The position numbers were made by a program, and so were the translations under genes. From contig CAVUGS010000013.1 of assembly GCA_963741075.1 (NCBI GenBank), positions 67,084-131,083 on the forward strand: a DNA stretch of 64,000 nt, written 5' to 3'. The first letter of the stretch is position 1; the number at the start of each line of letters is the position of its first letter. The notes below the pieces were generated by a model. That model worked only from the letters and a program-made list of their open reading frames with translations. It had not been told where the DNA came from and did no database searches. The DNA comes from an uncultured Thermoleophilia bacterium. GTDB lineage: Bacteria > Actinomycetota > Thermoleophilia > UBA2241. This document shows, piece by piece, positions 50,667 to 55,478 of the stretch.

Positions 50667-51560
50667 ATGATCGGACGCACGCAGGAGATGGCCGCCGCGC
50701 ACGCGGTGCTCTCCGGCGGCCGGCACCTGCTGCTGGAGGGGCCGGTGGGCTCGGGCAAGACGACGCTGGCACTCGCCGTCTGCCGGACCCTCGGGCGTAA
50801 GACGGTGCGCGTGGACGGCGACGACCGCTTCACCGAAGGTCGCCTCGCCGGCTGGTTCGACCCTCCGCTGGTCCTCGCGCGCGGCTACGGCGAGGAGGCC
50901 TTCGTCCCCGGACCGCTGGTGCGGGCCATGCGCGAGGGGCGCGTCCTCTTCCTGAACGAGCTGAACCGCCTGCCCGAGGCCGCGCAGAACCTGCTGCTGC
51001 CTGCGCTCGACGAGGGGCTGGTGCAGGTGCCGCACCTCGGGCAGGTGCGCGCCGCCGCGGGAGTTCCAGGTCGTCGCGACGCAGAACCCGGCCGAGTACG
51101 TGGCCACCGGTCATCTTTCCGAGGCCATCCGCGACCGGTTCGAGCATCTCGAGATCGGCTATCAGAGCGCCGCGGAGGAAGAGGCGATCGTCGCGCAAGT
51201 CACCGGGTGTCGCGACGCCCGGCTGGTGCGGACGGCGGTGCGGCTCGCGCGCGGGACGCGGGTGCACCCGCGCGTGCGCCGCGGGGCGTCGGTGCGCGGC
51301 GCGATCGCCATCGTCGAGCTGACCGCCGGGACGGGCGCCGAGGCGCTGCGCCGCGCCGCCGAGGCGGCGCTGGCGACGCGCGTCGAGCTGCGCGACGCGG
51401 ACGGCGGGTTCGAGGCGGTGCTCGACGAGCTGCTGGAGCTCGTCGTCGAGCGCGGGGAGGACCCGGACGCGGCGTCTGCCGCCGGCGCGTTCGGCGGCGA
51501 GACCGACGCCGCGCAGGTTCGCCGCAGGTCCGGCCCCCCGGCGGACGGGCCGGAGGAGCC
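50667..51560 (+). CDS. CbbQ/NorQ/GvpN-like (AAA_5, MoxR class) AAA+ ATPase, copy 1 (frameshifted; 3' end approximate)
   Basis: GRHLLLEGPVGSGKTTLA, VRVDGDDRFTEGRLAGWFDP, VLFLNELNRLPEAAQNLLLPALDEG, VATQNP.EYVATGHLSEAIRDRF, RRGASVRGAI. Confidence 0.75.
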
Positions 51561-51598
51561 GCGGCCGCGCGCACGGGCGGCCGCAGCCGGAGGCCTGC

Positions 51599-52485
51599 AC
51601 CCTGGAGGACCGCCGCGCGCTGGCGCGGCAGCTGCGCGCGGCGCCCGAGGATCTGGACGGCTGGAAGCTCGCCGGCGACCTGAGCGCTGGAGCGCTCAGC
51701 CACGCCGGCGAGCGCGCCTGGCTGTGCGCCCAGCAGCTGGCGGCGGGCGCGGTGCTGCAGCAGAGCCGGCCGCCTCGTCGGGCCGCTCAAGGCGGCCACC
51801 AGGACCGTGCGTGAACCGCTGCTGGAGCCGTGGGGCGGCGAGCTGGACGTGGAGGCGACGGTCGAGAACCTGCTCGGCAAGCCGCACCCGGAACCCGGCG
51901 ACCTCATCGTGCAGCGCCGCGTGGACCGCCGGCACCAGGTGGTGCTGATGGTCGACACCTCGCTCAGCATGGCGGGGGAGAAGATGGCGCTCGCGGCGGT
52001 GGCCGCGGCCGTGCTCGCGCTCAAGCTGCGGCCCGGCGACCTGGCCGTGGTGCTGTTCGCCGACGGCGCCCGCGCCGTCTCACGCTTCGGCGAGGAGGTC
52101 GCCCCGGCCGAGCTGGTCCGCCGCATGCTGGCGGTGCCCTGCGGCGGCGGCACCGACATCGCCGCCGCGCTCCGGCTCGGCCACGCCGAGCTGCAGCGCG
52201 GCCGCGACCCTTCGCGCAGCGGCCTGCTGGTGAGCGACGGCGTGTACACGAGCGGCGCCGACCCGCTGCCGGCGGCGGCGCGGTTCGGGCCGCTGCACGT
52301 GCTCCTCATGGAGGAGCAGTCGGCGGCCCGTCGACCCCGGCGCGCCGGTCACGACCTGGATCGCGCCGCGCCTGCACGTCGGCGAGGCCGTCGCCCGCGC
52401 CGCCGACGGTGGCCTCGTGCGCGTCGACGGCTTCCCGGCGCTGCCGCGCCGGATGCTCGAGGTCGCCGACAGGGTGCTGCGATGA
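51599..52485 (+). CDS. VWA (MIDAS) protein partner, copy 1 (frameshifted; start unresolved, possibly fused to the ATPase)
   Basis: TVREPLLEPWGGELDVEATVENLLGK, RRVDRRHQVVLMVDTSLSMAGEKMALAAVAAAVLALKL, GGGTDIAAAL, LLVSDGVYTSG. Confidence 0.7.
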
Positions 52486-53028
52486 GCGCGAACCGTCACG
52501 CCGGCCGACCTCGTCTCCCGCGCGCTCGCGGCCGGCGCGAGCGCGGCGGCGGTCCTGCGTCCGGACCAGGTCGTCACCGCGGAGTGGGTCCGCTGGAAGT
52601 GCCTCTACGGCTGCGACGTGGCGGGCCGCTGCCTGACCTGCCCGCCGCACTCGCCAGCGCCCCGAGAGACCCGCCGTCTCCTCGACGAGTACGAGACCGT
52701 GCTGCTGCTGCGCTTCGACGTCCGTCCGGAACGCTCGGAGTGGCTGAAGTCCGCGCCCTGGGTGCTGGCGGCCGCGCTGCGGCTGGAGCGGGAGCTCTTC
52801 CTGGCCGGCCACCACAAGGTGTTCGCCATCGCCGGCGGGCGCTCGTGCGACCTGGATGAGGCGTGCGGCTCGCCCGAGACCTGCGGCAGCCGGGAGGGGC
52901 TGCGGCCGGGCCTGGCCGGCTGCGGCATCGACGTGTTCACCACCAGCGCCAACGCCGGCTGGCCGCTGGAAGTGGTAGCGGCCGAGGGCGAGCCGTATCA
53001 TCGCTACGCGCTCATCCTGGTGGAGTAG
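52482..53028 (+). CDS. Cys-rich predicted metal-binding protein (DUF2284-like), one early frameshift
   Basis: The ATG overlaps the VWA stop (ATGA). WVRWKCLYGCDVAGRCLTCPPHSP and SCDLDEACGSPETCGSREGLRPGLAGCGIDV. Confidence 0.6.
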
Positions 53029-53054
53029 GCGCACGGACTCTGAAAGGTGACGAC

Positions 53055-54012
53055 ATGACCCCCATCGAGAAGATCCAGCGCGAGCACGGCATCGTCGGCC
53101 GCGAGCGCGAACTGGCCACCGCCCTGGCCGTGCTCGGCGCCGGCCGTCACCTGCTGCTGGAGGGCCCCGTGGGCGTGGGCAAGACCACCGTCGCCCTGGC
53201 CGTCTGCGGCCACCTCGGGCGCGACACCGTGCGCGTGGACGGCGACGACCGCTACTCCGAGAGCAAGCTCACCGGCTGGTTCGACCCGCCGCTCGTGCTC
53301 AAGCAGGGGTACGGGGAAGAGGCGTTCTTCGCCGGGCCGCTGGTCGAGGCGATGCGGGACGGCAAGGTGCTCTTCATCAACGAGCTCAACCGCATGCCCG
53401 AGAGCGTGCAGAACGTGCTCCTGCCGGCGCTGGACGAGCGCCTGCTGCAGCTGCCGCACATCGGCGAGGTGCGTGCGGCGGACGGGCTTCCAGGTCGTGG
53501 CGACGCAGAACCCGGTGGAGTACGTCGCCACCGGCCACCTCTCGGAGGCGCTGCGCGACCGGTTCGAGCACCTCGCGCTGCTCTATCAGGGCGCGGACGA
53601 AGAGGCGGCGATCGTGGTCGCCGAGACCGGCTCCGACGACGCCGCAGCTGGTGCGCACGGCCGTGCGGCTCACGCGGGCGACGCGGCTGCACCCGCGCTT
53701 TCGCAAGGGCGCGTCCGTGCGCGGCGCCATCGCCACCGTCGCGATCGCCGAGCGGCTGTGGGCCGACGACCGCGACGCCTGCGGCGCCGTGAGCCGCGAG
53801 GTGCTGCGCCGCGCGGCCGAGGCCGCCCTGACGACGCGCGTCGACCTGCGCGACGACATCGACGCCGACTTCGGCACCGCGCTCGACGAGCTCCTGGAGC
53901 TCGTCGTCGAGCGCGGCGAGGACCCGGACGTCGCCCTCGCGCCCCCCGCGGCGGTCCCCAAAAGCCTGACGCCATCCGCCGGGGCTCCGCTCCGGCACCA
54001 GAGGCCGCGTAG
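53055..54012 (+). CDS. CbbQ/NorQ/GvpN-like AAA+ ATPase, copy 2 (frameshifted; 3' end approximate)
   Basis: GRHLLLEGPVGVGKTTVA, VRVDGDDRYSESKLTGWFDP, VLFINELNRMPESVQNVLLPALDER, VATQNPVEYVATGHLSEALRDRF, RKGASVRGAI. Confidence 0.75.
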
Positions 54013-54039
54013 AAGTCCGCGGCCTGCCTGCGTGCGCCC

Positions 54040-54898
54040 CGGAGCCGCCGGCCGGCGACGCGCCGCTGGCGGCCCTCGCCGAGCGCTACCGCGTCGACCA
54101 GGAGGCCCTCGACGGCTGGACGATCGCCGTGAACCTCACGCGCAGCGACTGCCGCATCGCCGACCCGGGCCTGCGCTACTACGCCGAGCGGCTGGCGGCG
54201 CGCGCCGTGCTGCAGCGCGCCGCCCGGCTCGTCGGCCCGCTCCGGTCGGCGACGCAGACGGTGCGCGAGCCGCTGCGCGAGCCGTGGGCCGGCGAGCTCG
54301 ACGTGGAGGCCACGCTGGACAACGTGCTCGGCAAGGCCTTCCCCGGAGCCGGGCGACTGGATCGCGCAGCGGCGCGTCGACCGGCGGCACCAGGTGGTGC
54401 TCATGGTCGACACCTCGCTCAGCATGAGCGGCGAGAACATGGCCATCGCCGCCGTGGCCGCGGCGGTCCTCGCGCTCAAGCTGCACCCCGAGGACCTCAG
54501 CGTGGTCGTCTTCGAGGACAAGGCGAACGCGGTGACGCACCTGGACGTGCCGGACGCCGCCGCAGGAGGTGGTCCGGCGCATGCTCGACCAGCCGGTGCG
54601 CGGCTACACCAACATCGAGGCCGCGCTGGCGCTCGGCGCAGCCGAGCTGGAGCGCGGCCGCAACCCCCGCCGCAGCGGCCTGCTGATCACCGACGGCGTC
54701 GTGACCGCCGGCGGCGACCCGCGGCCGCTCGCGCACCGCTTCCCGCAGCTCTTCGTCCTCCTCACCGAGGACTACAAGATGAACCCGGAGCTCTGCCGCG
54801 AGCTGGCCGACGCCGGCCACGGCGACGTCTTCCCGGTGCGCGCCTTCCGCGACCTGCCGGCGCGCCTGCTGGACGTCACCAACCGCATCCTGCGGTAG
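54040..54898 (+). CDS. VWA (MIDAS) protein partner, copy 2 (frameshifted; start unresolved)
   Basis: TVREPLREPWAGELDVEATLDNVLGK, RRVDRRHQVVLMVDTSLSMSGENMAIAAVAAAVLALKL, YTNIEAAL, LLITDGVVTAG. Confidence 0.7.
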
Positions 54899-54940
54899 AC
54901 TGGCGGTCCGGGCGGCGCGCGGTACGCCCCTCGTCCGGCT

Positions 54941-55478
54941 GTGATGTCCGACCGCGAGGAGCGTCCCGTGGCCCTGTTCGGCCCGCCCGACGTCGCCAAG
55001 CTCGACGCCGCCGGCAAGATCGACGGTCTCGTCAAGGCGGCCAAGTACAAGAAGGACCCCGCGGTCGCCGAGGCGGCGCGCCAGGCGCTGGAGGGCTATC
55101 TCGACAAGCTCATCGAGCGGCTGCAGACCAAGAACATCGTGCAGCTCGACACCACGCGCGAGGCGCTGGTGCTCGTCGGGCCGCCGGCGCGCGACCGCCT
55201 CATCTTCATCCTCAAGGAGGGTCACCTGCACCGGCGCCAGGACGCCGCCTACGTGCTCGGGATGATGAAGGACCCCGTCGCCGTCCCGCAGCTCTGCGTC
55301 GCCATGCACAATCCCGACCCGCTGCTGCGCATGATCATCGTCGAGGCGCTCGGCAAGATCGGCGATCCCGGCGGGCGTCGACACGCTGCGCAAGGCCCTG
55401 GGCGACGTGGACCCGCAGGTGGCCGCCGCCGCGCGCAAGGCGCTCAAGAAGATGGGCGCCCTTCCCGGCCAGAAGTGA
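54941..55478 (+). CDS. HEAT/PBS-lyase-like repeat protein (one frameshift)
   Basis: Repeats of the type DPAVAEAARQALEG, RRQDAAYVLGMMKDPVAVPQL, DPLLRMIIVEALGKIGDP, DPQVAAAARKALKK. Confidence 0.6.

Follow-up and report, generated by a model that had tools for sequence, protein, structure and literature searches.

The MoxR-class AAA+ ATPases NorQ, CbbQ and CoxD are paired with NorD, CbbO and CoxE, which carry a von Willebrand factor A (VWA) domain with a metal ion-dependent adhesion site (MIDAS). NorQ/NorD and CbbQ/CbbO are normally encoded by separate Q-type and D/O-type genes, and each has been reported to form a hexameric ring bearing one VWA adaptor. The eukaryotic protein midasin/Rea1 contains six AAA_5-type modules, a linker and a C-terminal MIDAS domain in one polypeptide of ~4,700–4,900 amino acids (aa). 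The long and short subunits encoded by dnaX of E. coli (tau and gamma) assemble together. They arise by a −1 frameshift in an AAA+ gene and share a common ATPase module (PMC5009743), with the short form being the frameshift product. [quoted passage not shown] Here we describe an AAA+/VWA locus from an uncultured Thermoleophilia bacterium (contig CAVUGS010000013.1), in a stretch of 64,000 nucleotides (nt) referred to as the window. It contains two ATPase–VWA pairs, A1/V1 and A2/V2, and we propose that A2/V2 (53055–54898) is most likely a single gene recoded by programmed −1 ribosomal frameshifting.

Three-frame translation and Pfam assignment bore out the gene order given in an initial annotation of this DNA, which is AAA+1, VWA1, DUF2284, AAA+2, VWA2 and a HEAT-repeat gene, all on the + strand between 50667 and 55478 (Table 1). 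The Pfam matches were AAA_5 (83.3 bits for A1 and 84.8 bits for A2, cut-off 22), VWA_CoxE (43–45 bits, cut-off 26.4), DUF2284 (PF10050, 105 bits, cut-off 25) and HEAT_2 (60 bits, cut-off 27.7), and A1V1 and A2V2 are 63% identical. A usable start codon for the VWA part was absent from both pairs, as the annotation had stated. It had offered two explanations, fusion of ATPase and VWA through a linker, or an indel hiding the start. The former holds for pair 1, which is one in-frame open reading frame (ORF), while the two parts of pair 2 are joined only through a −1 frame change; the latter gives way in pair 2 to a conserved −1 change at a slippery site. The annotation had also taken non-recurrence in other genomes as grounds for doubting the arrangement, which was found again in dozens of Thermoleophilia genomes, with all six listed genes together in ~11 loci.

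The junction of pair 2 was compared across 76 loci of species-representative genomes and further loci identified beforehand; together they contain 65 A2-type (frameshift-type) genes from ~60 species-level genomes. In a neighbour-joining tree of AAA+ domains, these form one large clade. The AAA+ ORF terminates with P/K-K-A/V/G-stop in all 65 genes, short-read assemblies among them, and the orthologs P0085, P0087 and P0088 all end in PKA. In nearly all of the 65, the VWA ORF lies in the −1 frame with respect to the AAA+ ORF. The DNA at the junction reads C_CCA_AAA GNN TGA/TAG/TAA, with A_AAA_AAA as the heptamer in six loci. Alignment of 64 junctions showed no variation in AAAAG or in the T of the stop and at least 90% conservation of CCC, and in each of the 64 the heptamer, of either type, matches X_XXY_YYZ in the zero-frame register. 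C_CC.A_AA.A is a frameshift-prone heptamer in E. coli (PMC4066793).

Codon usage sets the junction apart from the rest of these genes. AAA accounts for 3.7% of their Lys codons and CCA for 3.5% of their Pro codons, and neither CCCAAAA nor AAAAAAA occurs elsewhere in 91.5 kb of their sequence. Of the 198 degenerate codon columns that are conserved in 49 genes, 19 were fixed on one codon, 17 of them on the preferred GC-ending codon. The sole two columns fixed on rare codons are the CCA and AAA of the junction, and two other conserved Lys columns are fixed on AAG. Contigs from RNA runs of related organisms cover both the AAA+ and VWA parts as well as the junction between them, which is weak evidence of expression.

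Past the slip site, no stop interrupts the −1 frame before the VWA part in any locus except L009, a long-read assembly; the frame reads S-L-S/T-...-G-A-...-R-H-x-G-R-V-E-V-R-G-L-P. Joining A2 to the −1 extension would give a long product of ~610 aa. The MIDAS motif is present in both VWA parts of the window, with DTSLS, the Thr (GGGTDI / RGYTNI) and the Asp (LLVSDG / LLITDG), and D439, S441, S443, T505 and D533 are invariant in 28 sequences. The relative P0001, 73% identical, is a plain in-frame fusion. Another arrangement was observed in L013 (6328–9833), in which DUF2284 is followed by an AAA+-only gene (ending at 7964) and then by a 614-aa fused AAA+–VWA gene (7989–9833). Considering the in-frame fusions and this two-gene form together, the short and long forms therefore recur by three genetic routes. 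The cassette and the −1 frame relation are conserved in the family, a conserved VWA start is lacking, and in-frame fused homologues exist.

A second, paralogous clade of frameshift-type genes was observed in L010, L027, L049, L061, L067 and L069. Its AAA+ ORFs end in PKV or PKA, its −1 frame enters a different, acidic N-terminal region without LDGW, and its genes lie directly after DUF8230 without the HEAT gene.

Most junctions are followed by a potential RNA hairpin. Stimulators of frameshifting usually begin 5–8 nt downstream of the heptamer (PMC4066793). At 26 junctions a GC-rich stem of 5–7 base pairs (bp) occurs right after the stop, with a 6-nt spacer, the spacing of most clades other than that of the window, and at 23 junctions, including that of the window, the stem begins 14 nt past the heptamer and is mostly 7–8 bp long. 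Scored as the number of base pairs, with G-T counted half, a hairpin of at least 6 was found at 83% of junctions versus 13% of 2520 control positions in the same loci. The stem sequences vary between clades, with compensatory changes, such as the swap of GCC/GGC to GGC/GCC in L012, L017–L020, L029 and L030. An Rfam search of the junction gave no family match.

The layout resembles that of frameshifted chlD genes, in which the zero frame of one mRNA encodes an AAA+-only product, a linker and a VWA domain are gained by a −1 shift at an A-rich heptamer that has structure downstream, and other genomes contain in-frame fusions. It differs in that chlD uses A_AAA_AAR, whereas most heptamers here are C_CCA_AAA and the zero-frame stop follows one codon on. 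A literature search found no relevant paper linking MoxR and ribosomal frameshifting.

Reading the junction in the window itself required correction of the sequence, which lies in a region of ~72–75% G+C. Frameshift-aware dynamic-programming alignment of the window DNA to the proteins of L005, a clean short-read relative, placed insertions at about 49693, 51063, 51556, 51761, 52347, 53484, 53644, 54342, 54556 and 55367. Two more extra bases, ~53952 and ~54001, came from later comparisons, with the latter visible in the junction alignment, so that the window carries at least 12 single-base insertions between 49.4 and 55.5 kb. Each frame break that the alignment placed in a coding region is a single surplus base in the window. 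Logan contigs, which are independent assemblies from four wetland/soil metagenomes and 90–99% identical to the window, omit one base at 51584, 53487, 53644, 53952, 54345, 54556/7 and 55376. For the second insertion in A1V1, the two approaches differ, with the alignment placing it at ~51556 and the contigs omitting a base at 51584 instead. The initial annotation had overlooked single-base insertions in every gene of the run. Because the independent contigs lack the extra bases, the window is an unpolished long-read-type assembly, and its frame breaks other than the pair 2 junction are assembly errors. Removal of the surplus bases at ~53952 and ~54001 makes the junction match the layout of the relatives exactly.

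Similar defects were observed outside the locus. DUF8230, a DAK2/FakA-like/DegV gene (55524–57357), pntAA, pntAB and pntB are likewise frame-broken (window 49400–60450), and each break resolved there is a surplus base, never a deficit. A T535-A79-T8-A13 homopolymer block at 31751–32385, inside sequence of ~70% G+C, almost certainly reflects an artefact of long-read assembly or a chimeric junction.

The most serious competitor of frameshifting is that A2 and V2 are two ordinary genes, an ancestral fusion having been split by a frameshift mutation, with the VWA part starting at a GTG ~38 nt past the stop or by termination-reinitiation. Gene callers annotate the orthologs in L005–L007 in this way (354 aa + 295 aa), GTG is present at the called start in 26/36 members of the window's sub-clade, and separate Q and D/O genes are usual in NorQ/NorD and CbbQ/CbbO. 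However, the supposed GTG start is GTA in the window and GTC, ATC or GTA in nine relatives, ten sequences in all, and the −1 frame upstream of it is open and conserved as protein; the "GTG start" called in some relatives behaves like an ordinary Val/Ile codon. Seven genes (in L015, L030, L060, L061, L068 and L077, and the second L049 gene) contain no ATG, GTG or TTG before the conserved LDGW, and three of the seven come from short-read assemblies. A two-gene arrangement also leaves the invariant rare CCA-AAA, the fixed stop one codon on and the hairpin unexplained, and we consider it unlikely. We regard transcriptional slippage, with some transcripts gaining a base on the A run, as less likely still. 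Six loci have A7–A8 runs, long enough for RNA polymerase slippage, and long A runs correlated with output in chelatase reporter cassettes (PMC3711429), but most junctions, including that of the window, have just four As, and the RNA-run contigs show no length variant, though contigs lose rare variants. Four As are too short for efficient transcriptional slippage. Conservation of the CCC ahead of AAAA, together with the in-frame X_XXY_YYZ register, favours slippage of tandem tRNAs. Finally, the at least 12 insertions in 6 kb and the T535/A79 run raise the question of whether these are decaying pseudogenes or the frame changes meaningless sequencing artefacts. The insertions, however, are absent from independent contigs, and the −1 junction, flanked by two intact, conserved halves, recurs in short-read assemblies and across ~60 species, which makes this the least credible of the alternatives.

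Several observations weigh against programmed frameshifting, the frequent GTG in the window's sub-clade among them; a separate VWA protein may be translated there to some extent, independently or by re-initiation. L009 and the first L010 copy, both from long-read assemblies, have the VWA part in frame with the stop. The 14-nt spacer in the window's own clade exceeds the usual 5–8 nt. RNAalifold gave no single consensus structure across clades for all 64 junctions, because the stem offsets differ by clade, and per-sequence folding energies were not clearly lower than those of shuffled GC-rich controls (mean z −0.7), because GC-rich sequence of any kind folds well. All source organisms are uncultured and known from metagenome-assembled genomes, and the window is so error-laden that its junction frames are interpretable only via relatives and Logan contigs.

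Table 1. Features of the AAA+/VWA locus, in window coordinates.
Feature	Position	Strand	Remarks
DUF8230, enolase-superfamily-like	49396..50485	+	tblastn and alignment to L005 protein; insertion ~49693
A1V1, AAA+ (AAA_5)–Pro/Ala/Gly linker–VWA fusion	50667..52486	+	604 aa after removing ~four insertions (51063, ~51556/51584, 51761, 52347)
DUF2284, Cys-rich, predicted metal-binding, ~180 aa	52483..53028	+	ATG 52483 overlaps A1V1 stop; one more insertion must be assumed for the frame
A2 zero-frame ORF, predicted short AAA+-only product, ~303 aa, ending ...SPKA-TGA	53055..53969	+	insertions ~53484, 53644, 53952
Slippery heptamer C_CCA_AAA, proposed −1 site	53957..53963	+	junction conservation
−1 extension: linker, helical region with LDGW, VWA with MIDAS DxSxS...T...D	53963..54898	+	insertions ~54001, 54342, 54556
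Zero-frame stop (TGA), one codon past heptamer	53967..53969	+	TGA, TAG or TAA in 64/64 junctions
Hairpin GCCGGGGC-tcc-GCTCCGGC, candidate frameshift stimulator	53978..53996	+	14 nt past heptamer
HEAT-repeat protein, 177 aa, PBS-lyase type repeats	54944..55478	+	45 nt past VWA stop; insertion ~55367

Corrected for its insertions, A1V1 is a stop-free ORF that encodes the AAA+ module, a Pro/Ala/Gly linker, a helical region and then a VWA domain with the full MIDAS motif. Three independent short-read contigs (L005–L007) each carry its ortholog as one ORF of 600 aa, and pair 1 is a single in-frame fusion protein. In the AAA+ tree, the A1-type fusions form a separate, older clade and always adjoin a frameshift-type gene. 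The whole-pair duplication proposed in the initial annotation is therefore not a recent tandem event, the AAA+1 type having an old clade of its own. A search with the stitched A2+V2 protein returned 476 relatives, the best 120 of which are mostly single proteins of 580–630 aa with 97–100% query coverage. The AAA+/Pro-rich linker/VWA architecture is shared by A1V1 and >100 homologues of 580–630 aa, and the fused relatives come mainly from Thermoleophilia, with some from Chloroflexia and archaea. In L033 (7893–11973), the AAA+ half of a fused AAA+–VWA gene is repeated after it as an identical but incomplete copy, which a 404-aa transposase-like ORF abuts; the arrangement probably reflects a recent duplication or an assembly repeat. 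This locus was dropped as evidence for a fused plus AAA+-only gene pair, since the second copy is an identical partial duplicate beside the transposase-like ORF.

The description of the ATPases as CbbQ/NorQ-like in the initial annotation proved sound in that they are MoxR-class, with solved-structure profiles matching midasin AAA modules, NorQ, MoxR 2r44 and CbbQ. The best solved relatives of the AAA+ module are the midasin modules (E 1e-41), followed by NorQ/CbbQ (E 1e-14 to 1e-9); CobS was weak among these matches, and BchI/ChlI was not among the best 60. No NCBIfam model reached its cut-off, the closest being TIGR02640 GvpN (82–89 bits versus 266.8). A chelatase reading was rejected, since TIGR02031 (BchD-ChlD) scored 33.1 bits against a cut-off of 499.55 and TIGR02442 (putative cobaltochelatase) 52.7 bits against 779.45, and no cobN/chlH partner gene was found among the annotated neighbours of the loci inspected, whole genomes not having been searched. 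A Pfam Mg_chelatase match was limited to residues 2–42. Anti-phage defence was likewise rejected, as PADLOC gave only weak generic AAA and HEAT matches, with E no better than 2e-7. Based on these profiles, the gene family is assigned as MoxR/midasin-like (AAA_5 + VWA_CoxE), distinct from chlD.

The AAA+ module has the conserved motifs GPVGVGKTT (Walker A), ATQNP, RDRF and GASVRG. Its Walker B motif contains N-E rather than D-E (LFLNELNR at ~50980–51000 and LFINELNR at ~53370–53390). The N-E is invariant in 28 family members, including archaeal ones, and aligns to the DE of midasin, so ATP turnover may be slow or regulated. In this respect the family differs from NorQ, CbbQ and CoxD, which have D-E. 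Further differences are that their ATPase and VWA genes are separate, whereas here they are fused or frame-joined, and that no Rubisco, nitric oxide reductase or CO dehydrogenase gene lies next door here. Compared with midasin, the chain contains one AAA module instead of six, and a ring must therefore form from several chains.

The neighbouring genes recur to different degrees among frameshift-type genes with enough flanking sequence. The HEAT gene lies immediately downstream in 44/61 loci, and DUF8230, omitted from the initial annotation, is found within 4.5 kb upstream in 37/50. DUF2284 is immediately upstream in 22/59 and is absent from the close relatives L005–L007, and an extra fused AAA+–VWA copy occurs in 17/57. 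HEAT, DUF8230 and DUF2284 are thus recurrent but dispensable neighbours. No neighbour is shared by the distant fused homologues in Chloroflexia, Eubacteriales and archaeal loci, which stand alone and offer no pointer to a client.

DUF8230 belongs to a very abundant family whose homologues carry PF26684/PF26685. Its AlphaFold model (pLDDT 88) matches N-succinylamino-acid racemase/o-succinylbenzoate synthase folds with E 5e-13, and the predicted fold is that of the enolase superfamily, muconate-lactonising subgroup. Shared gene-order ancestry may account for its linkage to the cassette. Between DUF8230 and the A1V1 start, at 50592–50607, lies a terminator-like hairpin with a T-rich tail; chance alone predicts ~0.9 such sites in this stretch.

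DUF2284 contains eight conserved Cys. The ATGA coupling to VWA1 reported in the initial annotation is real as an overlap (ATG 52483, TGA 52484–52486), but the ATG falls outside the DUF2284 frame as read. NCBIfam matches to DUF2284 were limited to the C-terminal domains of MbdU and ArsM-DUF2284 selenoproteins, with scores short of the cut-off. A fold search with a model of P0241, in which the Cys-rich loop is poorly modelled, gave no significant match. The weak top folds, at E 0.05 or worse, are those of epoxyqueuosine reductase, reductive dehalogenase and nitroreductase; for the first two, the matching regions are their cobalamin-binding, nitroreductase-like cores (E 0.05–0.2, TM 0.35–0.5).

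Further afield, the fatty-acid-kinase-like gene that separates HEAT from pntAA (55524–57357) is a variable insert, found here and in L004 but missing from L005–L007, in which pntAA comes directly after HEAT. At 44303–47834 the window encodes a molybdopterin enzyme of 866 aa that resembles pyrogallol hydroxytransferase (AhtL-like domain 1), with its 4Fe-4S subunit of 302 aa, followed by an FMN-reductase-like gene and then by a xylose-isomerase-like TIM-barrel gene on the minus strand. The ORFs of the molybdopterin enzyme and the 4Fe-4S subunit are intact, unlike their neighbours.

Under programmed frameshifting, most ribosomes would stay in the zero frame and stop at the TGA at 53967–53969, giving a MoxR/midasin-type AAA+ subunit of ~303 aa (~33 kDa). 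A fraction would slip back one base on C_CCA_AAA, probably aided by the hairpin and the adjacent stop, and would read through the Pro/Ala linker into the MIDAS-intact VWA domain, giving an AAA+–linker–VWA subunit of ~610 aa (~66 kDa). The short and long subunits would then assemble in one AAA+ ring, and the frameshift rate would set the share of rings with a MIDAS arm for gripping a client. At a frameshift level of some 10–20%, one mRNA would supply rings bearing about one MIDAS arm each. The occurrence and rate of slippage and the co-assembly of the two forms are what we infer from the sequence. The paralogue A1V1 may join the same ring, and HEAT, DUF2284 and DUF8230 are candidate partners or clients. 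Frameshifting would here yield the long form, whereas in E. coli dnaX it yields the short one, and the families and functions are unrelated.

More tentatively, and with less confidence than in the frameshift itself, we suggest that this is an undescribed case of recoding in a bacterial "mini-midasin", which might set the ratio of plain to MIDAS-armed subunits. The locus could then represent a new maturation/remodelling system with HEAT and, optionally, an A1V1-type paralogue and DUF2284, and with DUF8230 as a possible client. Such recoding might have arisen independently of chlD, reflecting a general need for sub-stoichiometric VWA arms.

Annotation pipelines report such a gene as two unrelated products, an "AAA family ATPase" and a "VWA protein", and the window shows that assembly indels can fully mask a recoding signal. 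If the frameshift reading is correct, this would be a second, unrelated AAA+/VWA family among the few cellular genes that encode two subunits of one machine by recoding, the others being dnaX and chlD. It would suggest mixed armed and unarmed rings as a general design rule for MoxR/VWA remodellers, and would offer an experimental handle on a widespread, uncharacterised protein family of soil/wetland Actinomycetota.

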